From the sequence record ON470605: a stretch of DNA of 46,068 bases; one strand, given 5' to 3'. The position numbers and the translations under genes are program-made. Position 1 is the first letter of the stretch. Each line of letters begins with the position of its first letter. The stretch comes from Escherichia phage vB_EcoP-720R6. This document shows positions 7,629 through 46,068 of the stretch, piece after piece. A model generated the notes under the pieces. The model had not been told where the DNA came from and searched no databases. It saw only the letters and a list, made by a program, of their open reading frames with translations.

Positions 7629-7636
7629 TCACTCTG

Positions 7637-7659
7637 CCAGATGGCGCAATGCCATCTGG
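7637..7659 (+). terminator. Hairpin downstream of ybhB (possible terminator, no clear U-tract)
   Basis: CCAGATGGC-gcaat-GCCATCTGG perfect 9-bp stem immediately after the ybhB stop. Confidence 0.35.
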
Positions 7660-7718
7660 TATCACTTAAAGGTATTAAAAACAACTTTTTGTCTTTTTAC
7701 CTTCCCGTTTCGCTCAAG

Positions 7719-7733
7719 TTAGTATAAAAAAGC
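7719..7733. other. attR common core (lambda 15-bp core GCTTTTTTATACTAA, seen as reverse complement)
   Basis: TTAGTATAAAAAAGC at 7719-7733; flanked on the ybhB side by the attB B' arm sequence (AACTTGAGCGAAACGGGAAGG as reverse complement). Confidence 0.88.
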
Positions 7734-7880
7734 TGAACGAGAAACAGAAAACACTGTAAATATCAATATGTTACGAAAGATTTAGTCTAAATAATAGACT
7801 GCATAATACTACAAAACACAACATATCCAGTCACTATGAATCAACTACTTAGATAGTATTAGTGACCTGAGGCAGAGCAT
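7734..7880. promoter_or_regulatory. attR P arm (Int arm-type, IHF and Xis site region)
   Basis: Reverse complement reads CAGGTCACTAATACTATCTAAGTAGTTGATTCATAGTGACTGGATATGTTGTG...TTTCTCGTTCA, closely resembling the lambda attP P arm as recalled, with GTCACTAT arm-type repeats. Confidence 0.7.
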
Positions 7881-8177
7881 TAGCGCAAGGTGATTTTTTG
7901 TCCTCTTGCGCTAATTTTTTGTCAACGGACTGGGTTAGTTGAATTTACAACCATGCTCAGTATCTCGATAAGCGCAGAGAAATGATGCAGTGGTGGGCGG
8001 ATTGGCTTGATGAGAAGGTAGAGTGATCCGCCTTAACAACTATCGAAGCGCACAAAGCCTTGTGTGTCTCATAGGCTATGAAACAATCATTTTACATGGT
8101 TACTTCACTACTTCCGCACAATATGATATCGTTCACAATCTAAAAACATTAATAATTTATCCATTACCGCGGTTAAT

Positions 8178-8203
8178 GCCCGTCGCTTCCAACGGGCTTT
8201 TTT
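8178..8203 (+). terminator. Intrinsic terminator in P-arm-proximal region (candidate tI/sib analogue)
   Basis: GCCCGT-cgcttcca-ACGGGC followed by TTTTTT on the plus strand, the strand int transcription would continue on across att in the circular phage. Confidence 0.4.
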
Positions 8204-8352
8204 GTAAATTATATTTTTATTACCTTATATTAATATTGTGTCATCAAAAAGCATTTAAATTTTTATATTTAATTTCGTTGACGTCAATGTTTTTTGCCAA
8301 TGTACTTACTTCTTTATGTGAGCAGTTCATATTTTTGACGCCAACGAAACAT

Positions 8353-11298
8353 TTAGTGCCTCCCTTCTATTAAGTCTAACCTAGCTTTTATTCTTTCTAT
8401 TTCTCTGCGCTGCCATGCTGCCTCGATATAGAATAAGAGATCAGGTCTGACTCCCCATCTAGATCCTGCTGGCGTTATTTCAACGCGCTCAATGATGTCT
8501 TCCATTACCATCACTGGATTATCATCCTCATCAACAATGATGCTCCCGTCATTATCAGTCAGCGGCATTTCCCTTTGGCCAGTAATGACGTCATCATATA
8601 CTGCGGGATAATCGTCATAGCAAAGAAAGGCATAGCGGCATGTTGTGCTTTCTTCTTCCATGAGTCCGTGAGAAATAAGAACATCACGAAGTTGCTGCGC
8701 GATTACACCATGATGTATCCTCGCCCCTTCTTCCCCCTTTATAGCGACAGCGTTCAGCCATTTATAAGCGATATACCTGACGTCACCCCAGGCATCCAGC
8801 AATGCTTCGTCAGGAGAGACCGGCTCTGTCTTTAATGTTCCGTCACTGGTAACCACAGGATTGGAGCCAAGATAAACTGTCGAGAACCTGTTTCCCGGAC
8901 CACCAAGAGCATTTACATTATCAAGATAAGGTTTAACATCTCCGTTCTCAAAAAGATGTTCGAGTGCGTTATATACCGCGCGACGTGGAGTACTGCTTCC
9001 GGAACCATGCAACGTTATCATTGCACCATCTGCTGAAGACGTTGTTTCACCGCCGCTAACGATTAATCTCTGAGCGGTAACATCATCAGACGGTACTTTC
9101 TTCGCAATAATGGCGTAATTACCCTCAAGTTTGACTTCCGCGCGAACTTGTCCTGATGTACCGGCATGGACAGTCAGTGACTGGACGGCAACATCATCTG
9201 TGAAATCAACGGGTACAGGAACCGTCCTCACGCCTGACGTCGACATAAAAGTAGGAAGCGTTCTGTTAGGAGTGGCTCCGTAGACAAAATCCCTTGAAAC
9301 AAATTCTTCCTGTTTAATTTTCACCCTGAAACAATACAAATCAGCCGGGTGACCATCGTGAACATAAGGATATTTTCTGTTGTTATCCCCTATGCTCCAT
9401 GGGTTTAGAAAGTCTTCCCCACCGAAAATGTAGTACAGCCAGTTGTCTTTGATACAAACTGAACCAACACCAACCGCAGAGTTAACTATTCCGCCCTGAT
9501 AAATCTGATCAGTAACATTAACCCACTCTACATTATCCAGACTCCACTCATTGACGTTAACTCTGGTCATAAATGTTCTTGGATAATTTCCTGCATAACG
9601 GTTATCAGGTTCTCCTCCTTCCCACTCACCAAATGCGCGCTCACTGCCAAAAATAATCAGCTCATCGCCAACTTTGGCAAAAGGAAGGTTTGAGTGATGA
9701 ACATTATTTGGGAAGCGAAGAGAATTCCATGATGTACCTAAATCAGAGCTTCTGTGCAATGAACTACCGGGTTGAGTACTTAATGTCCCCCTGGTCGTCA
9801 GATACAGAATGCCATCATAATATTTTACACATGGCTCAGATGCATTCGCCTCATATTCTACAGGTATGCGTCTGCGAACAAAGCTACCAGGAGAACCGAA
9901 AGCATCAGAGAAATAGAGTATCCCAAGCTCGCGTGGATCAATATCACCATTATGGTAGCCAACAGCAAAACTGTTATCGCTAATCGTCGCAAAACTGTGA
10001 ATCTCAGTAACAGGAGTGCTTCCGTCAACAAAAGAAGGAATAGTTCCAAGACTGGTTTTTCTCCATGGTGACGAGTGAAATGATGTACCAAAACTCCAGT
10101 ATCTACCCTCGTTATTCTGATCCACATCCTGGGTATTTTGCGTCGTAACTGTAAAAGTATTTTTATCAATGACAGTAGTCACCGTCATATTCCCGGTAAC
10201 ACCTGTAACACCAGAGTTTGAGAAGTTGACAAAATCACCAGCAAATAATCCGTGATCAGTAATGCGAATATAAGCGACTTGCTGATTTGCTGCTTTCGTT
10301 ATACCACCATAAACGCGAAGGCTGCGACTCATTGGGCGATCCCACAACTCTGCAACCTGCAGTTTATTTCCGCTCACGGTCCGCGTCTCAATTACAGCAA
10401 AAAGGCGATTTCTGACAACCCCCATACTCATGCAGTGATAGTTAACTGTGGGATAGTTTTCATGTAAATCTGTAAGCCATTCCGGCGTTGTCCAGGTCTT
10501 CCCGTCATCTCCTGAGCGAACCCATGCAACATGGAGGTTATTTACACCATGGCGGTCTCCAGCCATAAAAGGCGCATAGATGACATTGTCATATACAAAC
10601 GTTTTATCCTGCGTCCAGGCGTTGTACCACGGTGTATCTGTAATTTTAAATAACTCTCCTTGGATAAAATCTTCAGAAGCATAAAAAAGAGGCTGACCCG
10701 GTATTCTCTCAAATAAAAAACGAGCATTTTTAAATCGACTGACATCTGGAAGAGTTGATACTTTAAAAGTAAGCCCTCGCCCATCTATCTTTTCACCACC
10801 TGTTGCAACAGAAAGTAATTCTGATAGAGCTGATGTATCATCATGAACACCATCACCAATAGCCCCCCAACCTCTTACATCATAACTGTCTCTCCATCTT
10901 GCTATCTGAAGTTTTGGGTATTTATTCGCTCCATCTGGGTCTTCTAATTGCTGTCGTAACTGATCAGGATCATACTTCAGCACATTCGGAAAATAGAACT
11001 GCTGTGTACCATACGCATCATAAACAGCCATAGAATGGCCTTGCACGGTTACGAATTTGGCAATCTGTCCGTTATATACCGGATATCCAGCAGCGTTAAT
11101 GATTATTGGTTGCGAAACAGGAATGTGAGAACCGTCTTCGTTCTCTACATAAACCTGAATCTGGTTTTCAGGATTTACCGGGTCAGTGTCAATTTTACCG
11201 ATATAAATTTTGCCATTGGCTACGGCTTTAAAAGAACGCGCCATAGTGAAGAGTTGCGAAGGCATACTCACTACAACATTGGCTGTAATGTCTGTCAT
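8353..11298 (-). CDS. Tailspike: P22 gp9-like N-terminal head-binding domain, sialidase-like body with two Asp-boxes (probable endo-N-acetylneuraminidase), C-terminal intramolecular chaperone domain
   Basis: 981 aa; N-terminus [43 protein letters not shown] resembles P22 gp9; Asp-boxes SGDDGKTW and SSDLGTSW; C-terminus YAFLCYDDY...[30 protein letters not shown] resembles the self-cleaving chaperone domain of endosialidases. Confidence 0.7.
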
Positions 11299-11366
11299 TT
11301 AATTTGCTCCAGATACAAGGAATCGCCGCAGCATTGCCACAGTGATGCATTATTAATCAAACAAAG

Positions 11367-11381
11367 AGACCACTGTGGTCT
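11367..11381. promoter_or_regulatory. Palindrome AGACCAC-T-GTGGTCT, candidate Mnt operator
   Basis: Perfect 7-bp inverted arms around a central T, in the 146-bp spacer between the mnt start (11445, plus) and the tailspike start (11298, minus). Confidence 0.45.
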
Positions 11382-11444
11382 TATTGAGGATGCAACCAGC
11401 AGATAATAAGATGCCGATCCACTCACAAAAGCGAGGCATCAAGA

Positions 11445-11696
11445 ATGGGAAGAGATGACCCGCAATTTAATCTGCGGCTACCTTACGAATTAAAGGAAAA
11501 ACTAAAACAGCGAGCCAAATCCAATGGCCGCTCTCTTAATTCAGAATTAGTTCAGATAGTGACTGATGCTGTATCAAAGCCATCCAAAATTTCAGGCTAT
11601 CGAGACGATGCGGAACGCATCGCTGATGAGCAGTCCGAACTTGTTAAGAAGATGGTGTTTGATACGCTGAAGGATTTGTACAAAAAACCCACCTGA
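11445..11696 (+). CDS. mnt: Mnt-like ribbon-helix-helix repressor (Arc/MetJ family)
   Basis: 83 aa, MGRDDPQFNLRLPYELKEKLKQRAKSNGRSLNSELVQIVTDAV...SELVKKMVFDTLKDLYKKPT; RHH N-terminus and Mnt-like length/C-terminus; no arc or ant next to it. Confidence 0.8.
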   Translation: MGRDDPQFNLRLPYELKEKLKQRAKSNGRSLNSELVQIVTDAVSKPSKISGYRDDAERIADEQSELVKKMVFDTLKDLYKKPT

Positions 11697-11712
11697 TGGT
11701 GGGTTCCATTTA

Positions 11713-12132
11713 TTAGTCTTGCTTTGTGGACGGTATAAGTGATGCATTTGCCTCTTTTGGCTTCAAGGTATACATCCCACCATTAAATGGATCTACAGCA
11801 AGCCAACCAATTAACCCACCAAACACAAAGTTTCCACCAATATACCAACCATTAGCATTGGCTTTGATTGGCAGGGTAACTGGTTCGTACCCATCCTTCT
11901 CCATAGTGATCTGGTAGCTCTTTTTGCCAAAATAACTACCATCTGACTTGGCAAGAGTTACTCCTTGCGGGGTCTTACCTTGCGCAACAATCACGCCTGA
12001 TTCGTCTTTTACCTTAAAGCTCGCACCGGAAGGATTGCTGTTCACTTGCACAAGCTGTGTTTCGTCACCAACAATAGTTGCGCACCCAGATAACAATATA
12101 GCGCCAGCAACGACGCCGATAATCCTCTTCAT
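11713..12132 (-). CDS. Lipoprotein with PEGA-like domain and C-terminal glycine-rich hydrophobic segment (moron; function unknown)
   Basis: 139 aa; signal peptide plus lipobox MKRIIGVVAGAILLSGC; PEGA-like NSNPSGASFKVKD...GKTPQGVTL; GWYIGGNFVFGGLIGWLAV near C-terminus. Confidence 0.65.
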   Translation of the reverse strand: MKRIIGVVAGAILLSGCATIVGDETQLVQVNSNPSGASFKVKDESGVIVAQGKTPQGVTLAKSDGSYFGKKSYQITMEKDGYEPVTLPIKANANGWYIGGNFVFGGLIGWLAVDPFNGGMYTLKPKEANASLIPSTKQD

Positions 12133-12204
12133 ATTACTTTCCGTTTTGTTAGAATCAGAAAGATCTTAATAATAAAAAGTATTTTCGTGAAGATATTGTC
12201 GATT

Positions 12205-12217
12205 GAGTTAATAACTC
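12205..12217. promoter_or_regulatory. 13-bp palindrome GAGTTA-A-TAACTC in divergent promoter region of the two lipoprotein genes
   Basis: Seen directly at 12205-12217, between the minus-strand start at 12132 and the plus-strand start at 12267. Confidence 0.25.
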
Positions 12218-12266
12218 ATTTACACCCAACAGTGCCATGATGGCAAAGATAAGGAGAGTTAATCAT

Positions 12267-12752
12267 ATGAAAAAATCACTGTTAATTATCCCGCTTCTGC
12301 TGGCAGGGTGTGCAAAGGTTAGCGACTATCAGGCAAGTTGCGAACAACGCTATCCAAAGCTTAGCGATATGGCTAATTGCCTTGATGCTAGCGTGAAGAG
12401 CGACTCACGCATGGCATCAGCACCAACACCTAAGTTATATGTCCTTGCTGCGAAGATGCTCGGGCAAGGTGTCGATGATGGCAAGATAAGTGACGCGCAG
12501 GCAAGACTTGAGCTTCAGAATCTTTATGTTCAATTACAAAGCCAAGAACAAGCCCAACAAATAGCACAAAGCCAAGCATTCCAGCAGGCTTTATTGAATT
12601 ATCAGGCTGTAAACACAATGCAAGCTATCGAGCAAAAAGCGCGCCAGCCTGTTATAACTCAACCTTACCCAACACGCGTTGACACTTACACAAACTGCAA
12701 TTCAGGGTTTGGAAATACAGTCACATGCAACAGTAGCAGTAACATCAGATAA
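12267..12752 (+). CDS. Lipoprotein with Gln-rich coiled-coil-like region (moron; function unknown)
   Basis: ATG at 12267 with RBS AAGGAGAG; MKKSLLIIPLLLAGC lipobox, residue after Cys is Ala; Q-rich LELQNLYVQLQSQEQAQQIAQSQAFQQ; opposite orientation to surrounding late genes. Confidence 0.65.
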   Translation: MKKSLLIIPLLLAGCAKVSDYQASCEQRYPKLSDMANCLDASVKSDSRMASAPTPKLYVLAAKMLGQGVDDGKISDAQARLELQNLYVQLQSQEQAQQIAQSQAFQQALLNYQAVNTMQAIEQKARQPVITQPYPTRVDTYTNCNSGFGNTVTCNSSSNIR

Positions 12753-17288: not shown

Positions 17289-18238
17289 TGCTCCGCAATG
17301 ATTTTGATGGTTGTGGCAGTAAACGCCGCACCATTTGACTGAATGGTTAACGTACTGCCATTTGTGGCAAGAAAGCCGTCTTTATCCACGCTGAAGAACG
17401 TAGCTAACAGGATGTTGTCGGTTGTTGTCGCCGCATTACGACTGCTCACAAGTGTGTCAGGAACAGAGCCGGAAAAGGTTAGCTGCATTGACCTGTTGGC
17501 GGTTCCGCTGGGCCACGTCCCGACAATCGACAGCTTGAAGAACAAGGTTTTGTTCTCGTTGAACACAACCATCTTGTTGTTAACGGTGTCGAAGAATGGT
17601 GCCAACGTGCCGGATGACGGCGTGAGCGTTTTCAGCAGGCTAACAAGGTTGGTCGGCGCTGTCGGGATGGTTACCGATAGTCCTGAGTAAACAACCTCTG
17701 ATTTCTTGCGCGTGGTGGCATACTCAAGCGCAGATATTCTTGTTGAGTGATCACCAACTGTGCTTTGTAGCGTCGAAATACTTCCCTCTGCCGCTGTGAG
17801 CCTGGTATCAAGTGCGCCGATATCGGTTGTATTCTGAGTTATTCGCGCATCATGGTTTGCTAACTCAGATTCATTGGCAGCAATTCGCGTCTCGTGATCA
17901 GCCAGCTCTGTTTCGGCAGCCGTAATCCTTGTTTCATGATCTGCAAGAGTGCTTTCCGCTGCTGCAATTCTATGTTCATGATTGATGAGAGTTGCTTCAG
18001 CAGCTTCAATTCTGGATTCATGGTCTGCAAGGGTGACATCCTGCTCATCATTCTTCACCTGTGCATCATAAGCCCCCTTCCCTGCTTCGTTGGCCTTGTT
18101 CGCCACGTTACCAACATCAGCACCCTGTGCGATAACGTACAACAGATACGACTGCGAGAAGATATTGCGTGGAAGGACTGATGTGTCGAGTCGTGTAGCC
18201 TGAATGATTACCGGCTCATTGAGATTCGAATCAGCCAT
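17285..18238 (-). CDS. Tail needle (P22 gp26-like) with extended C-terminal knob domain
   Basis: 317 aa; N-terminus [39 protein letters not shown]...[13 protein letters not shown] resembles P22 gp26; five tandem 14-aa repeats ([14 protein letters not shown]); about 130 extra C-terminal residues. Confidence 0.8.
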
Positions 18239-19656
18239 TACTCAATCCTTATCTGGCAGCCAGACAGAGTGACAGGTGACTTCGTGATAACGCGCAATTT
18301 GAAGCCGACATTTTTCCTTATTCGCCCGACACGCTTCCACAAAACGCGTTTGTCGTAAACGAACGGTTCATTCTGCTCAATCATCTGCTCACGTCCGTAA
18401 TTGATGCCGTCAGTGGTTGCCGATAGGAACAGGCGGTCAGCGTACTGCGCAACGCCAGTTGAAGATTCAACTTCAAGGTCGAAAACTCTGGCGTTATCCG
18501 CTTTGAACAACGGAGTAAACAGCAGGTGTTCCTGTTGCTTGTCGTACTGGCTGCTGATGTCGAATTGCAATTTCCCGGTCACGGACTCCAGCTTATCGCC
18601 GCACGTTATCTGATTGCCTTCGTAAATGAAGTCGATAGCGCGGTACACATCGTCATACAGGCCTGTTTTCAACACACACCATTGCGGACCATTGGCGCTT
18701 GAGGATGCGTCGTACGCGAGTACGTGGCGCGGAAGATGGATAATCAGCAGTTCATGCGCATCAAATCGCAGAGACTCCATCACGCCATCAGCCAGTTCAT
18801 CAGCAGTGTAGGAGCGGAGGATTTTCTCAATGCTCGCGCTGGCGATTGGTGACACCTGCCCGGAGCCGATGATGTATACAGACGGCGCACCCGTTGCCGG
18901 ATTGCTGATGAACGCATAGGAATCAGCAAACGGCGTTTTGCAGTAAGTTCCGGCAATGCCTTTCTGCACCATCAGTGATGGCTGTGCGACATACAAAGCA
19001 GCACCAACTGTGGTTGCGCCAGTCAGGGAGAAATACTCAATCGTCGATGAACCAAAGCAGACGATGAAGTCTCGCCATGTTCCGATGCCGATGATACCGT
19101 CCGGCTGCGATTCTGCGCGATATTGTGCGCTGTAGCGGTCAGGATGCGATTCGTCTTCAAGGTCAGTGATAAACCATGAATCAGTGCCGTCTTTTGACCA
19201 CGCATAACGGCCACGTAAGCGAGTAATGTCACGAACCGAACCTAACTCATACTGCGTGAATCCGCTGTCTGTAGGCCAGTTTGAGACGGTTTTAACCGTG
19301 CCGTCATAGCGATACTCGACCAGTTGACCATTAACGCCAACCGCCTGTGATGTACGACCATGAGCCATTGATACGCGACCACTTCCGGCAACATTACCGA
19401 CTTCACTTTCTCCTTTGTAGAGCTTGCCACCACACACGCGATAAACAGCATTCTGCGCCATGTTGTACTCGACGCCGCGCGATACGCCGTTCACATCAGA
19501 ACGTTTGGCAATGCCCGGGAATGAGCGAAGATATCCGCTGCTGTTCAGGATTTCTTTGGGTGTAGCCAGCATATTCACTGGCAGATAGTCGATGTAGTCG
19601 GCGTTTCGGAAGTCTTTGCCGACACCTTTCATGATCGGAAGTTGCTGAATCGGCAT
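18238..19656 (-). CDS. Tail hub protein (P22 gp10-like)
   Basis: 472 aa, the same length as P22 gp10; position between gp4 and the needle gene. Confidence 0.8.
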
Positions 19657-19665
19657 TTATTCACC

Positions 19666-20127
19666 TCACGTACTCGGATCATCTTTCTCGATGTAAAATC
19701 GATTCCACGTAAACGCGCTTTTGTTACCACTACCGCGAGGCATGTCATTTCGTCGCTCAAGTGGTGGTATTTTGGTTAAAGCGATACAGATTGTCTGATA
19801 TGCACTGTCAGCAGCGGTCAGGAGAGCATCCGACGGCTGAATGACGTTATCCATGCACACCTGCACAGCGAGCTTCAAAGCGACGCCATCATTTGCCCAT
19901 GCAGGGATACCTGAATCATCGTCAGGTAACGGCATGATGCCGTTTTCTGTATCAGCAAACTGATATCCAAGCTCGATACCTTTCGCCTGCCATGCTGCCA
20001 TCATGTCTTCGAGGTCATTAATGGCATCTTCAATTGCCTGAGGGTCAGCATCTGTCAACGTGGCATTGGAATACAGCCCGGCTTTTCGTAAAGCCTTTAG
20101 AACGAGATCACCCTTCGTTTTCGCCAT
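19666..20127 (-). CDS. Head-to-tail adaptor (P22 gp4-like)
   Basis: 153 aa, MAKTKGDLVLKALRKAGLYSNATLTDADPQAIEDAINDLEDMMAAW resembles P22 gp4 N-terminus. Confidence 0.8.
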   Translation of the reverse strand: MAKTKGDLVLKALRKAGLYSNATLTDADPQAIEDAINDLEDMMAAWQAKGIELGYQFADTENGIMPLPDDDSGIPAWANDGVALKLAVQVCMDNVIQPSDALLTAADSAYQTICIALTKIPPLERRNDMPRGSGNKSAFTWNRFYIEKDDPST

Positions 20128-20296
20128 CTTCTTCCGCCTTAGCCACTTTTTGCTTCGTTGCGGTTTCTTCAGGAGTTTTTACCCAGCCTTTTTTCAGGTG
20201 AGATTTAACTTCTTCGTCATCAACAATGATGTAATCGACAGCAAACTGACCACAGGTGATCATGTTCCCCGGCTTATAGAGCATTGTTCGTGCCAT
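20108..20296 (-). CDS. Small hypothetical protein between coat and gp4
   Basis: Internal ATG at 20296 of ORF 20108..20335 with RBS GGGAGA 5 nt upstream; 62 aa MARTMLYKPGNMITCGQFAV... Confidence 0.4.
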   Translation of the reverse strand: MARTMLYKPGNMITCGQFAVDYIIVDDEEVKSHLKKGWVKTPEETATKQKVAKAEEDGENEG

Positions 20297-20337
20297 TGTC
20301 TTCTCCCAATAAAAATGGGGCCGAAGCCCCACCAAAA

Positions 20338-21591
20338 TTACTGCCCGGCAATAACGATGCCCGTATATTCAGGAACAAGTACAGAGCAACCGTACAGAGT
20401 GGTGAAACGCGCAGTGGTTACGCCTTTGATGTGGTCGAAGGCGTAAGACATGATCAACGTAGCGCCCTGCTCGGTGGTTGCTGTCATTACCTGTGGACCC
20501 TGACCAGTCGGGAATGCCAGTTTGCCGTACATCAGTTCAACAGAACCATCAGCCCAGAACAGGTTAGCCGGTGCGGCATTTTTGTTGAGAATGGTGATTG
20601 CTGCACCATTTGCCGCGTTAGCATCAACGTTTGCATATGGACGGCTGGCGGCATCCTCGTTGTCAGGCGGCAGAATTTTCGGGGAGATAGTTACTGTCGT
20701 TCCGCTAACTGCAAGAACGCGGAATACCTGCGGCTGCCCGGTGGTGTCTTTGGTGATCTGGTGTACAGAATTCACGCCAGCAATGGTGAACGCATCGCCA
20801 ACCTGCAAACCAGATGCAGATACCGTAATGGTTCCCTGTCGGTTATCCACTGGCATATCGTTGGCATCTTTCGCTTCAACCTTGTGCGCAGGTTCAGCCG
20901 CCAGCGTCAGGGAAGTTGCTGTACCCTTCGGAACACGACCAGAAATATCGGTCTTGTAGCTATCGAAGGACGCAACCGGAGGGATCTGCGCTTTTTCGTA
21001 TGCTGTCAGGGTTGCGCCCTGAGCATAGGCACGGTGACCAAGCTCGCCAGCAAGGTCTTTGTAGTTGAAGGGGTTCCAGAAAGAGCGGCGGTTGATACCC
21101 TGTGGTACACCAATCGCCGTCATGGTGGCATCAATACCTGCCGCACAGTTCCACAAATCACGGCCCTGTGAACCAGTGGTTGAGTCAGCCATTGTGATCA
21201 CGTTAGTAGCACGCTGCGTGACCATGGAAATCAGGTCAGAGTCAATCTGTGCAGCAAGGCGCATACCTGCGGCGCGACCAGCTTCAGTTTTATGTTCCGG
21301 GTCACGCATTTCACGCGCATCCAGAGTGTACAGAATGTTTTTCGGCTCCTTGAACACTGAAGGAACAAGGCGCTGAACCAGTGCTGTTGGCGTTTTGCTG
21401 CTGAGATCGAGGCCTTCCTCAATGTTCATGTGGTAATGCTGCGGACGATACAGAACATCACCTGCTCGCTGCATTGCTGTATCACCGGGACGGAATTTTT
21501 TAGCGTTACGGGAAACTACGCAGGCGGCCTCAAAGCCTTCAACGTAGTTTTCGAACATGATTTCAAGGTCTTTTGCTAATTGGTTAGCCAT
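20338..21591 (-). CDS. Major coat protein (P22 gp5-like)
   Basis: 417 aa downstream of the scaffold gene; C-terminal NLFWADGSVELMYGKLAF motif resembles P22 coat NVFWADD. Confidence 0.8.
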   Translation of the reverse strand: MANQLAKDLEIMFENYVEGFEAACVVSRNAKKFRPGDTAMQRAGDVLYRPQHYHMNIEEGLDLSSKTPTALVQRLVPSVFKEPKNILYTLDAREMRDPEHKTEAGRAAGMRLAAQIDSDLISMVTQRATNVITMADSTTGSQGRDLWNCAAGIDATMTAIGVPQGINRRSFWNPFNYKDLAGELGHRAYAQGATLTAYEKAQIPPVASFDSYKTDISGRVPKGTATSLTLAAEPAHKVEAKDANDMPVDNRQGTITVSASGLQVGDAFTIAGVNSVHQITKDTTGQPQVFRVLAVSGTTVTISPKILPPDNEDAASRPYANVDANAANGAAITILNKNAAPANLFWADGSVELMYGKLAFPTGQGPQVMTATTEQGATLIMSYAFDHIKGVTTARFTTLYGCSVLVPEYTGIVIAGQ

Positions 21592-21609
21592 GCTTAATGC
21601 TCCGATAGG

Positions 21610-22503
21610 TTATTTTTTTGCCTTTTTAGCGGCGAAATACGGCGTCCAGTCACCAGTTTCCAGCGCCTTGGCTTTCAGTTTGTCGAGGTTATTGATTACT
21701 GCGCCGTTGCTCCCCTTAACTGTCGGGGTTGTGGCTGCCGTGGTTTTTGCTTTTGGCATGATTCTGGCCTTAGATTCGATACGTTCCAGCAGACGACCGA
21801 TTGCTACGGGGTTGGTAGCTTCTGCCAGTTGCTTGCGCAGTTCAGCGTTGCGACCGAGCGCCAGAACAACGATTTCCGGCTTCTCTGACTCAAACAGGAT
21901 CGCGTTTTGTGTCTCGATGGGAATTTCCTCGAGTACGGCCTGCTCAGCTTCCTGATAGCCAGGAACTTTGAGAGCCTTAACACGTTGCTGATATTTGGAT
22001 AATCGCTCTTGATAAGCAGCCTGAAGCTCCTGCTCCTTCTGCTTGCGAGCCATCTCCTGTTGCTGGTACTTGCCGTTATCCTCTGCCCACTTAGCCATGC
22101 GTTGCTGATAGATTTCTTCATCGAAACCGATGTCCTCATCATCCAGTTTTGGCATTCGCGGTGGTTGAGTGATTACCGGCTGCTGCTCGACGGGTTTCTG
22201 AGACTGACGCATCAGCTCTTTCAGCTCGCGGTCTTTCTCTTTAATCGTCTTGCGCAGGTGTTTTACCAGTCCATGCTCTGCGCCATCTTCGCTGGTTGGC
22301 GAATCCAGCTTTTCGTCACCAAAGTAGAATTCCTGTTCTGATTCGTCGTCATCAGTTTCAGTAGCTTCCTCTGCATCATTGCCGGAGGACTCACTGCCAT
22401 CTTCTGTTTCGACTTCTTCAGCCAGTTCGACATCATCAGGAATCTGCTCTGATGTATCGGTTTCGATTTCAACTTCTGGTGTGTTTTCTGCCATCTGGTC
22501 CAT
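21610..22503 (-). CDS. Scaffolding protein
   Basis: 297 aa, acidic N-terminus, coiled-coil core, basic C-terminal tail ...FAAKKAKK; position between portal and coat. Confidence 0.7.
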   Translation of the reverse strand: MDQMAENTPEVEIETDTSEQIPDDVELAEEVETEDGSESSGNDAEEATETDDDESEQEFYFGDEKLDSPTSEDGAEHGLVKHLRKTIKEKDRELKELMRQSQKPVEQQPVITQPPRMPKLDDEDIGFDEEIYQQRMAKWAEDNGKYQQQEMARKQKEQELQAAYQERLSKYQQRVKALKVPGYQEAEQAVLEEIPIETQNAILFESEKPEIVVLALGRNAELRKQLAEATNPVAIGRLLERIESKARIMPKAKTTAATTPTVKGSNGAVINNLDKLKAKALETGDWTPYFAAKKAKK

Positions 22504-22593
22504 TTGTTACCCCTGTTTACTCGATGTTAAGCCCATCGGAAGGCAATAGGGTGCCAGGCCTCATAAAGACAGCCATTGCACGTTATGGGTTAA

Positions 22594-24792
22594 TTACTGC
22601 TGTGGTTGTTGCTGAGTTGATTTTTGCAGGATGCTGCTGATGTCCATGCGCTGCGCATGACCCTGTGCCTGACTTTTCAGGACAAGCTCTGCATCAGCAC
22701 GGGCATTGTCTCCTTGCTGTTGCTGGAACTGTCCGAGCAGTTTCAGAGCCTCGCGGATATCAGATTTCTGCTGGCTATCGGCAGATGCGAGGATTTTTAC
22801 AACGTTTGCCGCTGCAACCTGAGCATCAGTCTGTGCCTGGAATGCTTTAACCTGAATGGCTGCCTGTTCGTTCTGCGCTTTCTGCAATTCAGCCTGACCT
22901 GCAAGAAGCTGACCTTGCGCTGCAACCATAGCCGGATCTGGCTGACTGGCCTGTTGTTGTTTCGCCTGCTCAACCATCTGCTGTTCTTCTGGTGTTCTCG
23001 GCTTGATAACTCCAGACAGAAGCAACTGATTGCGGTTGTATTCTTTAAGGTCGTCCATCCCTTCGCCGTCCATATTGTCGAGAATCATCGACGATACAAG
23101 GTCGTGCTTCGGCGTTCCTGGTGGGATAAGTGCCAGCATGGAAAGTAACGACTTAACCGTTGCGTCACGGCGAGTAGCGAACGACTGACCGACATCGACA
23201 GTCACTTCATAGTTACCCTGCGAAAGGTCGTTAAGCGCGATAACCTGCCCTGTCTGACGGTCAACCACTTCACCAGTCATCAGCGCCACGTCATCGCTGC
23301 CGTCCTCATTAACGATACGCATCGGCGTATCACTGCCATAGACCTCACGCGCCATAGAAAGCCACACAACGCCAGCGCGACGCATGGATTTAGCCATGTT
23401 GTCCATGTAGATATAGGACTGCGTATCCATCCGGTTAAAGATACTATCAACGGTATCGGTAGCGACGTTGCTCGGCATATTCTCAAGCTGCGACGCACCT
23501 GTAATTTGCTGAATAGCCGTTCCGGTGTACTGCAATAGCCCGGCAAGAGCAGGAGGCATTTGTGTCGGAGGTGTATAACTGCTGACCTGAGCCTGCGCAG
23601 TAATATCTCCGTTTTTGTTTTTCAGACTGACCATCGGCAGGAACGCCGGGCGCTTTTTGTTGCGCTCCGCCCAATGAGTGGCGAGAGGACCAGGAATCAT
23701 GTCAACATCAACTACAGGAATGCCATCACCGCCAGCCTGAGTAGCGTTATCTGCAATCATGGAAACCATCAGGTTCTCAAGACGCTGTGCATCCATCGCT
23801 TTTGCAGCGTGGCCTTCGATTCGCTCCTGATTATCAACAAATGAGCGACGCCCATATACCGGGATGAGAGGAATATGTTCGCCCGGAATACGCTTCGGTT
23901 CTTCCAGCCATTCAGCGCCAGACAGAAGGCCGCAATAAACGCGGCGCTTCTTCACCGTTCGCTCGCCAATCAGTTCGAATGCACCATCGGTCAGCTCGTC
24001 GACAATATCTTTGATTTGCTCTTCATCATAGATTGCCGTTTCTCCGCTAACAGGGTTGCGCCACGCCGTGAGCTTCACCTTCTCTATGCGAACTTCGTAG
24101 TAACGTCCAACATAGATGGCGTCAGGCGTTGACCAGTCATACTGAGTACCAGTGTCATCCCGAGAAAGGCTTGCCGCAATGGAATCAGGGTATTCAGCCT
24201 CGAACGCTTTAGGCGTCATGGAGAACATTTCCATAGCCCACATAGCATCAGAGCGGTCATATTGTTTGCTGTCCTGATCGAAGAAGACGCATGTCGCTGG
24301 GTCGTAAACCGGGAGAAGGCTGATGCGGCGCTGCTCGTTACTCGGATCCATTTCATCTTCGTAATCGGCACACATGCGGAAACAACCGAATCCGCCCGTT
24401 ACGGCATCATCAAATGCGTTATCACACGCTTCGCCACCGGATGTTTCCTGATAGTCAGCGCGGAATTTGCCGTTCATCTTTTCGGCTAACGCTTCCGATG
24501 CCTTGTCGTCCTTCGGCCTGAATTTAACGCTGATGCGATTCTGTCGATACTCTCCAATGATGCGATCACATTCGCGGGCAATCTTATTCAGTTCAAAACG
24601 CGGATAATGCTCAAACCTGCCTTCATCAAATGAGTAACCAGCGTTTGTGCTGCCTTCCCACTGTGCGCCGGACACCCTGACGAAACGTTGAGCCTCAATA
24701 ATCTGCTCACGCATATCCTGCGTTGCTGACCAGGCATTATCAAAGTTGCACAGCACCTTGCGATGCCAGTCAGTCATCTTTTTTTCTGCCAT
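22594..24792 (-). CDS. Portal protein (P22 gp1-like)
   Basis: 732 aa; motifs AGEHIPLIPVYG, GVIKPRTPEEQQ and a Gln-rich C-terminal barrel-like tail resemble the P22 portal. Confidence 0.88.
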   Translation of the reverse strand: MAEKKMTDWHRKVLCNFDNAWSATQDMREQIIEAQRFVRVSGAQWEGSTNAGYSFDEGRFEHYPRFELNKIARECDRIIGEYRQNRISVKFRPKDDKASEALAEKMNGKFRADYQETSGGEACDNAFDDAVTGGFGCFRMCADYEDEMDPSNEQRRISLLPVYDPATCVFFDQDSKQYDRSDAMWAMEMFSMTPKAFEAEYPDSIAASLSRDDTGTQYDWSTPDAIYVGRYYEVRIEKVKLTAWRNPVSGETAIYDEEQIKDIVDELTDGAFELIGERTVKKRRVYCGLLSGAEWLEEPKRIPGEHIPLIPVYGRRSFVDNQERIEGHAAKAMDAQRLENLMVSMIADNATQAGGDGIPVVDVDMIPGPLATHWAERNKKRPAFLPMVSLKNKNGDITAQAQVSSYTPPTQMPPALAGLLQYTGTAIQQITGASQLENMPSNVATDTVDSIFNRMDTQSYIYMDNMAKSMRRAGVVWLSMAREVYGSDTPMRIVNEDGSDDVALMTGEVVDRQTGQVIALNDLSQGNYEVTVDVGQSFATRRDATVKSLLSMLALIPPGTPKHDLVSSMILDNMDGEGMDDLKEYNRNQLLLSGVIKPRTPEEQQMVEQAKQQQASQPDPAMVAAQGQLLAGQAELQKAQNEQAAIQVKAFQAQTDAQVAAANVVKILASADSQQKSDIREALKLLGQFQQQQGDNARADAELVLKSQAQGHAQRMDISSILQKSTQQQPQQ

Positions 24793-24793
24793 A

Positions 24794-26209
24794 TCAACCT
24801 ACACCACAAGGAATTGAGTAACTGGAATAGTCGGGTTGCGCAGCCGACTCCGGGCAATGCATACACATCATCAGCGCATCAGCCAGGTTAGGAGATGGAA
24901 TACCGAGCTTCTGCTTCATTTCGACCTTAGTCATTAGCTCCAGCTTCCCGTTGTTATTGAATTTGCGCTGAATCTGCGTCAGTTCTGCAAACAGCTTCTC
25001 CAGCATCTTCTCGCCTATCGCTTCTTTGTCGAAACTCAGCATGTCGTCGGGGTCTGCATACTCACCGTGAACAACCGCCCGATATGTCAGATACAGCCTG
25101 TCAGCCAGCGCGTAATAGAATTGCGCTCGCTTATTGCGGAATACATCGCCAATAGTGCGAACGTTGTCGCCCTGCACGACTTCATCAGCCCATGCTCCGG
25201 CCTGATACGGCGCATCTTCATCGAATGGCGATTCGCTGCCCTTGAACATCGTGGCGGTGATTTTCTTGCCGGAGAACGCTTCCGTTGTCTGTCTGCGTAG
25301 CCCGGCACCAACACCATCACCATCCCACAGGTAGTGGTCAGCGCCGTCTTCAATCGCCAGCGAAGTAGCCCAGTCAGCACCATCGTTGATGTCCATCAGC
25401 AGACCTTCGGCAATGCGCTTAACTACCGAACCGTGGCGCGATGCGTAACCTTTAGCATCTGGCCCTGTATCTGACGGGTCATGCGCAGAAACAACAGCGC
25501 CTTTCGCTTTCCATCCGAGTTTCTTGTGCGCATCAGTTGCAGCTTCAAGCCATTCACGTTTGATGATTGCCATATCACTTGCGCTTACTGGCTCACCAAG
25601 CCAGATGTGACGATACAGTGTCGGATTTCTGCGTTTACACTCTTCCATCTCCAGACGGAGGACTTCAGGAAAGTGCGGGTTGTCGGTGTAGTTCACCGTC
25701 AGCAGGCAAATGTCATCGGGAGGATTTACGACGAATCGCTGATAGGTATCGTCGAGGATGTTTTTCGGGTTGAAGCTCACCCATATTTCGGAAAATGGCT
25801 TGCGGATGGTTGGAATCAGGATATCCCATGATTCCTTCGTTACCGCTTCCGCTTCTTCCACCCAGCAGATATCAATGCCTTCGAGCGATTTAATCTTCGT
25901 CGGGTTGTTTTTGATGCCGTAGAACATGAATTCAGCGTTCGTTCCGAGATGACGAATCATTGAACGCTGAATTTCAAACTCAGCCGTATACCCTTCACGC
26001 TCTATGGTGTCTTCAAGCAGCCGGATTACCGAATCGCTGATACTGTTTTGCAGTTCACGAGCGCAGAGAATACGCACTGGCTGCCGACGCGCCGCTTCAA
26101 CAAGCAGTCTCGCAATTGCCCATGATTTACCGCTACCTCGACCGCCTTTGGCGACTTTGTAGCGATGCGCCTCAATGAACGGTTCAAAGATAGGATTAAT
26201 CGAGGTCAT
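24794..26209 (-). CDS. Terminase large subunit
   Basis: 471 aa; Walker A KGGRGSGKS near the N-terminus; follows TerS and precedes portal. Confidence 0.88.
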   Translation of the reverse strand: MTSINPIFEPFIEAHRYKVAKGGRGSGKSWAIARLLVEAARRQPVRILCARELQNSISDSVIRLLEDTIEREGYTAEFEIQRSMIRHLGTNAEFMFYGIKNNPTKIKSLEGIDICWVEEAEAVTKESWDILIPTIRKPFSEIWVSFNPKNILDDTYQRFVVNPPDDICLLTVNYTDNPHFPEVLRLEMEECKRRNPTLYRHIWLGEPVSASDMAIIKREWLEAATDAHKKLGWKAKGAVVSAHDPSDTGPDAKGYASRHGSVVKRIAEGLLMDINDGADWATSLAIEDGADHYLWDGDGVGAGLRRQTTEAFSGKKITATMFKGSESPFDEDAPYQAGAWADEVVQGDNVRTIGDVFRNKRAQFYYALADRLYLTYRAVVHGEYADPDDMLSFDKEAIGEKMLEKLFAELTQIQRKFNNNGKLELMTKVEMKQKLGIPSPNLADALMMCMHCPESAAQPDYSSYSIPCGVG

Positions 26210-26646
26210 TTTCCGAATAGAGTGCTCATCGGTGATGTTTCAATCTGGATTGCGCCGCCGTCTTTGCCTGTTAGCTCGTGATCAACCTTGTCGCGCCATT
26301 TATCCTTCTGTCGGTTCTTAAGCCAGAAGATGGCGGCGGTTGTATCAGGCGGGTAATACTTCTCAAGCGGAGTTTCGACAATTCTGTTTTCAATAACACG
26401 AATATCGATGTCTGGAGCCACGAAGCCCATAGCGCGTTGATAAAGACGATCACTAACTTCTGCATCAGCGACGGCCTTACCCTTTTTTATAGACTCCGAA
26501 AACTTAGGATAATCAAGCTTCCACTTGTTAATAGTTGACTCACTGACTTCGAAGAAATCAGCAAGCTCTGCATCGGTGTAGCCCAGCAAGCACAGTTTGC
26601 GTGCCTGTTCGGCGTACGCCTCTTGATACTTTGTTGGGCGCGCCAT
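26206..26646 (-). CDS. Terminase small subunit (HTH DNA-binding)
   Basis: 146 aa; N-terminal HTH segment GYTDAELADFFEVSESTINKWK; overlaps the TerL start. Confidence 0.7.
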   Translation of the reverse strand: MARPTKYQEAYAEQARKLCLLGYTDAELADFFEVSESTINKWKLDYPKFSESIKKGKAVADAEVSDRLYQRAMGFVAPDIDIRVIENRIVETPLEKYYPPDTTAAIFWLKNRQKDKWRDKVDHELTGKDGGAIQIETSPMSTLFGK

Positions 26647-26648
26647 GT

Positions 26649-26891
26649 TTATGCTCCGGTGGTGAACAGGTCTAACGCTTCCTTCGATTTACGTACCGCT
26701 TCGATAGTGCGGGTCGTGATATCTGAATTAGCGCCGCCTGACTGGAAGTGAATTTTGAATAGCTCAAGCTTCAGCTCGTCAGTGCCGATGAATTGAAATG
26801 CTTCTTCTGCGGCTGCGTTCTGGTTCATGACCAGCTTGTAAATCTCTAACTGGAATTTCTGTTCTTCAGTCATGGGAATAATCTCTGCCAT
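26649..26891 (-). CDS. Small hypothetical protein upstream of terminase
   Basis: 80 aa MAEIIPMTEEQKFQLEIYKLVMNQ...; tightly packed just before TerS. Confidence 0.5.
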   Translation of the reverse strand: MAEIIPMTEEQKFQLEIYKLVMNQNAAAEEAFQFIGTDELKLELFKIHFQSGGANSDITTRTIEAVRKSKEALDLFTTGA

Positions 26892-27118
26892 TGTTGGCTC
26901 CGTTTATCCGTTAAAAGGGATATCAGTTAAGTTATCCCGTGTAGGGTATAAGCCATTGTCGAGACCACTCATTGAATGGTCTCTGCAATAACCGATGTCT
27001 TTCCATCAGTCCGCCACCACAAAGAATCTTTTTTGCCATAAGGCTGGAGGTTCATCTTTCAGTGGCTGCCAGTGTTATTTCCCCACTTACTGGCTTGGGT
27101 TGCTTCGTGGTACTGCTG

Positions 27119-27661
27119 TTAATTAGTGAGTCCGGGGATTACGGTTTGCCCGTGCTGTTCAAGGCGTTCAATTCTCGCCAGCAGCTGAGGCTTCTTAATT
27201 TTTCCCCAGCGATTAAGCAGGCGGCCTGACATGCTGGCAACATCCTTCTCTTTCATGTACTCCAGCATTACGGCATTTCTCTCTTCTTCAAATTGACGAT
27301 GACCAACCTGAAGCATGGCGTACATCCAGTTGAATGCGTTGATGTAAGCAATTTTGATACGCATTGCTTCTTTTTTGGTGTAGGACATAACCAAAAGCAT
27401 CAACCCATCCTTGCGGAGACGGTAGAATTTTTGCGGCTTACCATTCTGTAACTCATTGTTTTTATAGCAAAGCTCAAAGTTGAGCTTTGTATCAAACTCA
27501 GGAGGGCAAGCTTCTATGGTTCGCTCAATGTCACGGACTACGTTCTTCGGCAGCTTTCCAAATGCTTTTGCCACCATAAAAGAATCTGTAACCGGATCGT
27601 TGTTTGCTACAAAAATTAGGTCTCTGAAATCTATATCGTTAACAACGGTTGGGTAGTTCAT
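27119..27661 (-). CDS. Rha-family phage regulatory protein
   Basis: 180 aa; N-terminal Rha-like motif NDPVTDSFMVAKAFGKLPKNVVRDIER. Confidence 0.65.
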   Translation of the reverse strand: MNYPTVVNDIDFRDLIFVANNDPVTDSFMVAKAFGKLPKNVVRDIERTIEACPPEFDTKLNFELCYKNNELQNGKPQKFYRLRKDGLMLLVMSYTKKEAMRIKIAYINAFNWMYAMLQVGHRQFEEERNAVMLEYMKEKDVASMSGRLLNRWGKIKKPQLLARIERLEQHGQTVIPGLTN

Positions 27662-27809
27662 TGCGTCTTTACCTTTTAGAAAGATGAGCCTGTTCGCACA
27701 GAAAAGCCGTCCCCGAGATGGTCGCCACCATATACGGCAATTCTCAGGCTCAGCTTTCTGAAAGACTCGGGATTGTTACGCGCTGCGATGCGCGGTTTAC
27801 TGCAGATGT

Positions 27810-27833
27810 AAAAAAGCCCCGCAAATGCGAGGC
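27810..27833 (-). terminator. Intrinsic terminator-like hairpin between Rz and the Rha-like gene
   Basis: Minus strand reads CCTCGC-attt-GCGGGG followed by CTTTTTT. Confidence 0.4.
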
Positions 27834-28007
27834 TAAATCCTGGTATTTGTAATGACTGGCTCTTATCTCAACGCAGCCCCTTACCGCGCGCCAGATGCTC
27901 AATATCAAGCATCAGCAATGAGATGTTTAATCTGGATTCACTCCAGAAGTGATCACCACCCTGTCTACAGAGCCAGATGTGAAGGATGATGAGTAAAATT
28001 ATCGCTA

Positions 28008-28445
28008 TCATCGAAGGCATTGCGTCCTGATGTATTCCTGCAGGTAGTTAACCTGCGCGGTTATCCTGTCTATTCCGCTTCGGAGACGGTAATAATTGAG
28101 TTCAGCATCTGCTGTAAGTCTTGGGCTTTCTCCATCGCCCATGCTGCTGGCTCCGGTCGTTGACTTTGCACAGGTGGCGGAGACTTGCAGGCGCTTACGA
28201 CCAGCAGAAACATCAGCACGGAGACTTTCGATAGTCGCGTTAGCATCAGCAAGCTCCTTTGTATATCTGGCGTCGAGTTCTGCTACATCACGTTGACGCT
28301 TCTGCATGTCAGCGATGATGGATGTGGCTTTATCGCGCTGCTCTTTGTAGGCGATGGCGTTATCACGGTAATGATTAACCGCCCATGACAGGCAGACGAT
28401 GATGCAGATAACCAGAGCGGAGATAATCGCGGTTACTCTGCTCAT
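28008..28445 (-). CDS. Rz: Spanin, inner membrane subunit (Rz)
   Basis: 145 aa; N-terminal TM segment [30 protein letters not shown] lambda-like, remainder divergent coiled-coil. Confidence 0.85.
28070..28252 (-). CDS. Rz1: Spanin, outer membrane lipoprotein subunit (Rz1), embedded in Rz in another frame
   Basis: 60 aa, lipobox LVVSAC, Pro-rich [16 protein letters not shown]; wholly inside Rz. Confidence 0.7.
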
Positions 28446-28918
28446 ACCTCAATCTCTCTGACCGTTCCGCCAGCTTCTTTGAATTTTGCAATCAGGCTGT
28501 CAGCCTTATGCTCGAACTGACCATAACCAGCGCCCGGCAGTGAAGCCCAGATATTGCTGCAACGGTCGATTGCCTGACGAATGTCACCGCGATCAATCAT
28601 CGGTAAAGCGCCACGTTCTTTAATCTGCTGCAGCGCAACAGCGTCCTGGCTTTTCGGAGAGAAGTCTTTCAGGCCAAGCTGCTTGCGATAAGCATCCCAC
28701 CAACGGGAAAGAAGCTGGTAACGTCCGGCGGCTGTTGATTTTAGTTTTGGGTTTAGTGTGACAAGTTTGCGAGGGTGATCGGAGTAATCAGTGAATAGCT
28801 CTCCGCCCACAATGACGTCATAACCATAATTTCTGGTTTTCTGACGTCCGTTATCAGTTCCCTCTGACCACGCCAGCATATCGAGGAACGCCTTACGTTG
28901 ATTATTGATTTCCACCAT
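28442..28918 (-). CDS. R: Endolysin (lambda R-type lytic transglycosylase)
   Basis: 158 aa [30 protein letters not shown]... near-identical to lambda R as recalled. Confidence 0.93.
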
Positions 28919-29225
28919 CTTCTACTCCGGCTTTTTTAGCAGCGAAGCGTTTGATAAGCGAACCAATCGAGTCAGTACCGATGTAGCCGATGAACACGCT
29001 CGTTATATAAGCGAGATTGCTACTTAGTCCGGCGAAGTCGAGAAGGTCACGAATGAACCAGGCGATAATGGCGCACATCGTTGCGTCGATTACTGTTTTT
29101 GTAAACGCACCGCCATTATATCTGCCGCGAAGGTACGCCATCGCAAACGCAAGGATTGCCCCGATGCCTTGTTCCTTTGCCGCGAGAATGGCGGCTAACA
29201 GGTCATGTTTTTCTGGCATCTTCAT
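28902..29225 (-). CDS. S: Holin (lambda S-type, dual-start MKM)
   Basis: 107 aa [43 protein letters not shown]... near-identical to lambda S as recalled. Confidence 0.93.
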
Positions 29226-29466
29226 GTCTTACCCCCAATAAGGGGATTTGCTCTATTTAATTAGGAATAAGGTCGATTACTGATAGAACAAATCCAGGCT
29301 ACTGTGTTTAGTAATCAGATTTGTTCGTGACCGATATGCACGGGCAAAACGGCAGGAGGTTGTTAGCGCAACCTCATGCCACCCGCTTTCACGAGGTCAT
29401 GTGTAGAAGGCCGCAGCGTAACTATCACTGATGAATTCAGGATAGCCAGTGGCTACGGCTCAGTTA

Positions 29467-29542
29467 TGGTGCTGGTTAACGGACTTGAACCGCTACCCAT
29501 TCGCTTACAAGGCGACTGCTCTACCATTGGAGCTAAACCAGC
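29467..29542 (-). tRNA. tRNA-Thr (anticodon UGU), CCA encoded
   Basis: Manual cloverleaf: acceptor GCTGGTT/AACCAGC, D-arm GCTC-CAATGGTA-GAGC, anticodon loop CTTGTAA, T-arm with TTCAAGT loop, discriminator A then CCA. Confidence 0.7.
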
Positions 29543-29547
29543 ATATT

Positions 29548-29622
29548 TGGCGGGACAGCGTGGACTCGAACCACGATAAGAAGGTTAACAGCCTTCCGTA
29601 ATGACCTTTATACGACTGACCC
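29548..29622 (-). tRNA. tRNA-Asn (anticodon GUU), CCA encoded; one acceptor-stem mismatch
   Basis: Manual cloverleaf: anticodon stem GAAGG/CCTTC with loop CTGTTAA, T-arm CGTGG-TTCGAGT-CCACG, acceptor GGGTCAG/CTGTCCC with U4-U69 mismatch, 3-bp D-stem; 5 nt from tRNA-Thr. Confidence 0.6.
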
Positions 29623-29685
29623 AAATAAAAAAAGCCACCGTTGCAACTTAAGAGTCACTAACGGCAGCTTACCCTCTAATTATGG

Positions 29686-44801: not shown

Positions 44802-45020
44802 ATGTACTTGACACTTCAGGAGTGGAACGCACGCCAGCGACGCCCAAGAAGCCTTGAAACAGTTCGTCGATGGGTACGCGAGTGCAGGATATTCCCTCCT
44901 CCGGTTAAGGATGGAAGAGAGTATCTGTTCCACGAATCAGCGGTAAAGGTTGACTTAAATCGACCAGTAACAGGTAGCCTTTTGAAGAGGATCAGAAATG
45001 GGAAGAAGGCGAAGTCATGA
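44802..45020 (+). CDS. xis: Excisionase Xis
   Basis: 72 aa MYLTLQEWNARQRRPRSLETVRRWVRECRIFPPPVKDGREYLFHESAVKVDLNRPVTGSLLKRIRNGKKAKS, lambda Xis as recalled; overlaps the int start. Confidence 0.95.
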   Translation: MYLTLQEWNARQRRPRSLETVRRWVRECRIFPPPVKDGREYLFHESAVKVDLNRPVTGSLLKRIRNGKKAKS

Positions 45021-46068
45021 GCGCCGGGATTTACCCCCTAACCTTTATATAAGAAACAATGGATATTACTGCTACAGGGACCCAAGGACGGGTAAAGAGT
45101 TTGGATTAGGCCGAGACAGGAGGATAGCAATCACTGAAGCAATACAGGCCAACATTGAGTTATTTTCAGGACACAAACACAAGCCTCTGACAGCGAGAAT
45201 CAACAGTGATAATTCTGTTACGTTACATTCATGGCTTGATCGCTACGAAAAAATCCTCGCCAGCAGAGGAATCAAGCAGAAGACTCTCATAAATTACATG
45301 AGCAAAATTAAAGCAATAAGGAGGGGTCTGCCTGATGCTCCACTTGAAGACATCACCACAAAAGAAATTGCGGCAATGCTCAATGGATACATAGACGAGG
45401 GCAAGGCGGCGTCAGCCAAGTTAATCAGATCAACACTGAGTGATGCATTCCGAGAGGCAATAGCTGAAGGCCATATAACAACAAACCCGGTCGCTGCCAC
45501 TCGCGCAGCAAAATCAGAGGTAAGGAGATCAAGACTTACGGCTGACGAATACCTGAAAATTTATCAAGCAGCAGAATCATCACCATGTTGGCTCAGACTT
45601 GCAATGGAACTGGCTGTTGTTACCGGGCAGCGAGTTGGTGATTTATGCGAAATGAAGTGGTCTGATATCGTAGATGGATATCTTTATGTCGAGCAAAGCA
45701 AAACAGGTGTAAAAATTGCCATCCCTACAACATTGCATGTTGATACTCTCGGGATATCAATGAAGGAAACACTTGATAAATGCAAAGAGATTCTTGGTGG
45801 AGAAACCATAATTGCATCTACTCGTCGTGAACCGCTTTCATCCGGCACAGTATCAAGGTATTTTATGCGCGCACGAAAAGCATCAGGTCTTTCCTTCGAA
45901 GGGGATCCGCCTACCTTTCACGAGTTGCGCAGTTTGTCTGCAAGACTCTATGAGAAGCAGATAAGCGATAAGTTTGCTCAACATCTTCTCGGGCATAAGT
46001 CGGACACCATGGCATCACAATATCGTGATGACAGAGGCAGGGAGTGGGACAAAATTGAAATCAAATAA
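44998..46068 (+). CDS. int: Tyrosine integrase Int (lambda-type)
   Basis: 356 aa MGRRRSHERRDLPPNLYIRNNGYYCYRDPRTGKEFGLGRDRRIA...HELRSLSARLY...GHKSDTMASQYRDDRGREWDKIEIK, lambda Int as recalled; stop is the last codon of the window. Confidence 0.97.
   Translation: MGRRRSHERRDLPPNLYIRNNGYYCYRDPRTGKEFGLGRDRRIAITEAIQANIELFSGHKHKPLTARINSDNSVTLHSWLDRYEKILASRGIKQKTLINYMSKIKAIRRGLPDAPLEDITTKEIAAMLNGYIDEGKAASAKLIRSTLSDAFREAIAEGHITTNPVAATRAAKSEVRRSRLTADEYLKIYQAAESSPCWLRLAMELAVVTGQRVGDLCEMKWSDIVDGYLYVEQSKTGVKIAIPTTLHVDTLGISMKETLDKCKEILGGETIIASTRREPLSSGTVSRYFMRARKASGLSFEGDPPTFHELRSLSARLYEKQISDKFAQHLLGHKSDTMASQYRDDRGREWDKIEIK

Follow-up and report, generated by a model that had tools for sequence, protein, structure and literature searches.

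The window analysed here, a 46,068-nt stretch recorded as Escherichia phage vB_EcoP-720R6 (ON470605), begins with a segment of E. coli chromosome (bioBFCD, bioA and ybhB) and continues into a P22-like prophage. At this end the prophage carries one uninterrupted 981-aa ORF on the minus strand (8353..11298), for which RefSeq gives only the name 'phage tailspike protein'. Which surface polymer does this tailspike attack, and which host does it imply? We consider it almost certain that the gene specifies the tailspike of a temperate P22-like phage, related to CUS-3, with specificity towards the E. coli K1 capsule. Its reading as an endosialidase would be useful for annotation.

Domain architecture of the tailspike

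The gene, an orthologue of CUS-3 siaK1, encodes a precursor of 109.3 kDa, in which all six Pfam domains expected of an endosialidase tailspike were detected, in their proper order. The P22 gp9-type head-binding (particle-binding) domain occupies aa 1–113 (10960..11298, minus strand, like all parts of the gene) and covers the full Head_binding profile (PF09008, 1.5e-66; PDB 1LKT/7SG7). It is followed by a linker (aa 114–145, 10864..10959), where likeness to endoNF of phage K1F and to other endosialidases starts, by the endosialidase catalytic part (aa 146–817, 8848..10863; PF12218, PF12217, PF12195 and PF12219; endoNF structures 1V0E/3GVL) and by a C-terminal intramolecular chaperone domain of 18.7 kDa (aa 818–981 and stop, 8353..8847; PF13884, 3GW6). 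The catalytic part consists of an N-terminal extension (End_N_terminal, aa 146–212, 8.9e-37), a six-bladed beta-propeller with both Asp-boxes (End_beta_propel, PF12217, aa 213–662, 7.9e-233, full profile 1–367), a beta-barrel inserted in the propeller (End_beta_barrel, PF12195, aa 324–406, 1.2e-46) and a stalk (End_tail_spike, PF12219, aa 663–817, 7.5e-78). Directly after the stalk comes the Peptidase_S74 match of the chaperone (PF13884, aa 818–878, 1.6e-10).

Sequence searches against the PDB gave the same picture. The endoNF structures 1V0E/3GVL were matched with E=0 over aa 145–817, the endoNF chaperone domain 3GW6 with 1.1e-94 over aa 698–978, and head-binding domains of the P22, Sf6 and HK620 type (1LKT, 7SG7, 2VKY) with 1e-45 to 1e-65 over aa 1–118 (individually, 8.9e-45 for 1LKT and 8.8e-65 for 7SG7). 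The Pfam and PDB scores are beyond chance. The two Asp-boxes, SGDDGKTW (aa 262–269) and SSDLGTSW (aa 517–524), align with SGDDGQTW (362) and SRDIGQTW (610) of endoNF. These results bear out the original prediction that the first ~110 residues resemble the P22 head-binding domain (86 of the 113 residues of the domain are identical to gp9), that the body carries the two Asp-boxes of a sialidase beta-propeller and that the C-terminus resembles the chaperone domain released from endosialidases.

EndoNF is gp17 of phage K1F (PDB 1V0E, 3GVL and 3JU4; chaperone domain 3GW6). It shares 65% of residues with the catalytic part of the window protein (440/672) and 52% with the chaperone domain, and has both Asp-boxes in equivalent positions and the same cleavage serine. 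In contrast, its N-terminal particle-binding part is of the T7-tail-fibre type, unrelated to the P22 gp9 type found here, and the window protein differs from it by a 7-residue insertion, FVDGSTP, at about aa 423–429. The phi92 endosialidase (PDB 4HIZ, 9.3e-273) and those of K1-5, K1E and K1A (52–62% identity) belong to the same catalytic fold family. K1E and K1-5 attach theirs by a separate adapter protein, whereas the window protein has an N-terminal head-binding domain for this (PMC5380687).

Junction between the two modules

We then located the point where the two kinds of likeness meet. The 76% identity to P22 gp9 over aa 1–113 includes the KYDPDQ linker and stops after aa 113, at this motif. 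Conversely, tblastn matches to endosialidase phages (K1F-like, phi92-like and others) all start at query aa 114, and 18 of the 32 linker residues (aa 114–145) are identical to endoNF. Since the P22 likeness ends at 113 and the endosialidase likeness starts at 114, the protein is a chimera from two sources joined at aa 113/114. P22 gp9 itself (endorhamnosidase; 1LKT) is encoded downstream of the mnt/arc immunity region, as is the window gene. Beyond its aa 113, gp9 is a right-handed beta-helix endorhamnosidase acting on O-antigen, without releasable chaperone domain, and has no detectable likeness to the window protein.

Two observations concern the history of these modules. The 39.6-kb phage vB_EcoP_ZX5 (MW722083.1) and two Phi05 phage records show 99.5% DNA identity to the endosialidase body, over window 8385–10777 (gene nt 522–2914) and not over the head-binding part. 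This match suggests that the catalytic module passed very recently from one phage backbone to another. Separately, the gene differs from CUS-3 siaK1 at 33 nucleotides, and 18 of these changes cluster in its first 300 nt (window 11000–11298), within the head-binding domain, which is consistent with a separate recombination history of the head-binding module.

Conservation of catalytic and cleavage residues

The importance of individual endoNF residues is known from a deep mutational scan, in which H350, R549, E581, R596 and R647 were catalytic or essential (PMC12632334); the active-site triad is also given in PMC2955717. In a MAFFT alignment, all five are kept in the window protein, as H250, R456, E488, R503 and R554, and the supporting residues Q330, D331, H527, S528, K585 and N699 of endoNF are conserved as well. 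The position of endoNF K410 is occupied by Gly; K410 was dispensable in vivo in the same scan (PMC12632334).

The cleavage site of the chaperone domain is likewise conserved. In the alignment, S818 (in NPVVT followed by SDGTLK) corresponds to endoNF S911 and K823 to endoNF K916. The latter has a catalytic role in cleavage of the C-terminal domain. In K1F gp17, the released C-terminal domain (gp17-CTD) begins at Ser911, after NPIVT, according to the GenBank mat_peptide annotation. The cleavage point proposed for the window protein rests on this annotation, since a literature search for Ser911/Lys916 returned no match. Release at S818 would split the 109.3-kDa precursor into a mature subunit of 90.6 kDa and a fragment of 18.7 kDa. 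The computed precursor mass agrees with the 109 kDa listed for the CUS-3 tailspike (PMC5380687).

Correspondence to the CUS-3 tailspike

The closest named relative of the gene is siaK1 of phage CUS-3 (CP000711.1; ABQ88383.1 / CAJ29292.1), whose product also has 981 aa and the same three-module architecture. The two genes are 98.9% identical in DNA over 100% of the length, and the two proteins 98.8%, with 12 of 981 residues different; over the catalytic part, identity reaches 99.3%. Among the substitutions are D454G and V480A, both within the propeller, and G767R and T807I, which lie in the stalk. A pN/pS of 0.23 between the two genes indicates purifying selection on the tailspike gene. The gene is also widespread: among 5426 complete E. 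coli genomes, at least 181 have it at full length (coverage ≥80%), five of them at 100% identity.

CUS-3 siaK1 is annotated in GenBank as 'endosialidase tailspike protein', the record giving direct assay as evidence for its endo-alpha-sialidase activity (PMID 16689790), and the chimeric build of the protein was published together with this activity in 2006 (Stummeyer et al., PMID 16689790). It is described as a P22/Sf6/HK620-type N-terminus joined to a K1F-type endosialidase catalytic domain (PMC5380687), and the same review uses it as a textbook case of how tailspikes exchange modules (PMC5380687). Judged by these identities, the window gene is the published CUS-3-type endosialidase tailspike, already known and not new. 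The best homologues are endosialidases (siaK1, then endoNF) and not beta-helix O-antigen tailspikes, and all five catalytic residues reported for endoNF are in place. The original reading of 8353–11298 is thereby supported, and its sole correction concerns novelty, this exact chimera having been described as the CUS-3 tailspike. The window gene adds nothing to endosialidase biology. That biology has been established structurally and biochemically since 2005–2010.

Endosialidase activity of the window protein, as well as its processing and trimer formation, can be predicted from the 98.8% identity to CUS-3 siaK1 and the 65% identity to endoNF. In the model that we propose, the tailspike would be made as a 109-kDa precursor, in which the C-terminal domain (aa 818–981) would drive folding and trimerisation of the stalk, by homology with endoNF. 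An autocatalytic cut at Ser818 would then leave the 90.6-kDa mature subunit. The N-terminal domain (aa 1–113) would dock the trimer onto a P22-type tail hub, homologues of gp4 and gp10 being encoded nearby, and the propeller would cleave alpha-2,8 polysialic acid, so that the virion could traverse the K1 capsule.

Mosaic structure of the surrounding prophage

We compared the prophage around the gene with CUS-3. The lambda att core GCTTTTTTATACTAA is present as an exact copy at 7719–7733, right after ybhB, the second core lying outside the window. At the other end, a complete 356-aa lambda-type integrase (Arm-DNA-bind_1 + Phage_integrase, 44998–46068) finishes exactly on the final nucleotide of the window. 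The prophage is thus integrated at the lambda attachment site. CUS-3 inserts at argW.

A P22-like virion gene block is shared with CUS-3: the 11.5-kb structural block at 18009–29463 is 96.4% identical and encodes gp4 (P22_Tail-4, 19666–20127), gp10 (Phage_stabilise, 18238–19656), an Sf6-type needle knob, coat, scaffold, portal and terminase. In the sister genome AZ159, the copy of the prophage has annotated coat, portal and scaffold genes of the P22 family.

The tailspike end is arranged differently. In the CUS-3 record, the tailspike adjoins the phage's own integrase and the O-acetyltransferase gene neuO, while the window prophage has the lambda att site and a lambda-type integrase. Window 7943–8238 matches CUS-3 1266–1561, a segment made up of the final 84 bp of the CUS-3 integrase and the spacer downstream of it, and window 8239 onward matches CUS-3 2412 onward. 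Because 8238/8239 joins CUS-3 1561 to 2412, the 850-bp neuO cassette (CUS-3 1562–2411) has no counterpart in the window and is absent at a clean junction; likewise, no AAGACTC phase-variation (heptanucleotide) repeats were found in the window. The integrase stump itself (7943–8026, plus strand, 84 bp) shares 99.7% identity with the CUS-3 integrase gene's 3′ end, is annotated by RefSeq in AZ159 as an N-terminally truncated pseudogene and is followed by a terminator-like hairpin at 8178–8197. Its presence suggests that a CUS-3-type phage was the donor of the tailspike end.

As neuO and the CUS-3 integrase are missing and the integrase and att site are of the lambda type, the prophage is a mosaic relative of CUS-3 and not CUS-3 itself, and its departures from CUS-3 are ordinary mosaicism for P22-like phages. 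More specifically, it probably represents a distinct mosaic lineage, in which a CUS-3 tailspike block, with the leftover 3′ integrase stump and without neuO, moved into a P22-like phage with lambda integrase and att. The junction ybhB-att-tailspike is common to 17 complete genomes; the acyltransferase is kept in some of them (IAI39, CE10 O7:K1 and ExPEC XM) and missing in about ten, as in the window. If such a lineage exists, its lysogens would be without O-acetylation-based protection against other K1 phages.

Across the complete E. coli genomes, full-length tailspike, neuO and neuS were counted in 181, about 160 and 329, respectively, figures compared as totals. As the totals for tailspike and neuO differ, neuO is an imperfect proxy for endosialidase prophages. 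If endosialidase prophages without neuO are common, K1-specific temperate phages are undercounted by surveys that take neuO to stand for CUS-3. The one mildly informative point is the circulation of the endosialidase tailspike in P22-like prophages with no neuO and with another integration site than CUS-3.

The rearranged prophage end beside the tailspike, with its 84-bp integrase stump and no neuO, could also be read as a sign of decay. The tailspike would then be an intact-looking relic of a defective prophage, carried passively or serving the host, for instance in capsule turnover, and the ISEc52 inserted in the prophage of AZ159 (NZ_CP019008.1; an extra copy, in the early region) fits such a history. 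Against this stand the full-length ORF with its conserved catalytic residues and the pN/pS of 0.23, the complete lambda-type integrase in the window together with the one lambda att core at the boundary, and the AZ159 copy, whose annotation has no gene marked as a pseudogene from ninF through to the tailspike. We therefore regard a relic as unlikely and retain the tailspike of a K1-specific temperate phage as the preferred reading.

Capsule type of the host lineage and substrate preference

The tailspike was originally predicted to imply K1-encapsulated E. coli, with a kps/neu capsule cluster in the host. There are no capsule genes in the window, and the K1 status of the host was for this reason inferred from its lineage and close relatives and not from the source genome. 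Matches of ≥99.9% to the window come from five genomes (AZ159, M21816, TUM11352, Br_54_kylling and OZ038590); none of these is exactly identical to it, nor is any identical over the right half. Three of the five, AZ159, OZ038590 and TUM11352, carry the prophage at the same site as in the window and have an intact kpsMT-neuD-neuB-neuA-neuC-neuE-neuS-kpsSCUDEF locus beside yghD. Their neuS gene (alpha-2,8-polysialyltransferase) shares ≥99.5% identity with its counterpart in strains named K1 (APEC E19019 O2:K1:H4, IMT5155 and PMV-1). A K1 host is thus supported, as predicted, for the lineage. By its homology, the tailspike gene would mark the prophage as a K1-capsule-specific temperate phage and the host lineage as K1. 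This capsule type is linked to neonatal meningitis and urosepsis.

In M21816 (NZ_CP133923.1, 3972215–3973442), neuS is 2 bp shorter and its annotation is split into two ORFs, so that this genome may have lost the capsule.

Could the enzyme prefer a related polymer to plain K1 polysialic acid, for example K92, in which alpha-2,8 and alpha-2,9 linkages alternate, or polysialic acid carrying O-acetyl groups? Some of the 12 substitutions relative to CUS-3 siaK1 lie in the propeller and stalk, and a second class of polysialyltransferase gene, 80–90% identical, exists in 14 E. coli genomes. Yet the prophage-bearing genomes have neuS of the K1 class, and the catalytic part is nearly the same as that of CUS-3 siaK1 (99.3%). 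Moreover, the prophage is without neuO, so that its lysogens cannot O-acetylate the capsule by the CUS-3 route. A different preferred substrate is accordingly very improbable. Finally, a P22-like, non-sialidase beta-helix tailspike is ruled out for the body, as the likeness to P22 gp9 ends at aa 113 and the body matches endosialidase families only.

Immunity region and tRNA genes

Upstream of the tailspike, the immunity region (11445–12752) differs from that of CUS-3: it has an Arc/Mnt-type repressor (11445–11696), and the ant gene found upstream of the CUS-3 tailspike is absent. Beside the repressor lie two divergent small ORFs with lipoprotein-type signals, LSGC (11713–12132, minus strand) and LAGC (12237–12752, plus strand). 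Pfam gave no match for either; they may act in lysogenic conversion or in exclusion. In a promoter/terminator scan, promoter-like sites across 7630–11720 were at chance level (11 seen, 9.7 expected).

Two tRNA genes, tRNA-Thr(TGT) and tRNA-Asn(GTT), are located at 29467–29622 (minus strand), between the Q antiterminator and the lysis genes, and the alignment of the window to CUS-3 has a gap (29464–29627) exactly over this tRNA stretch.
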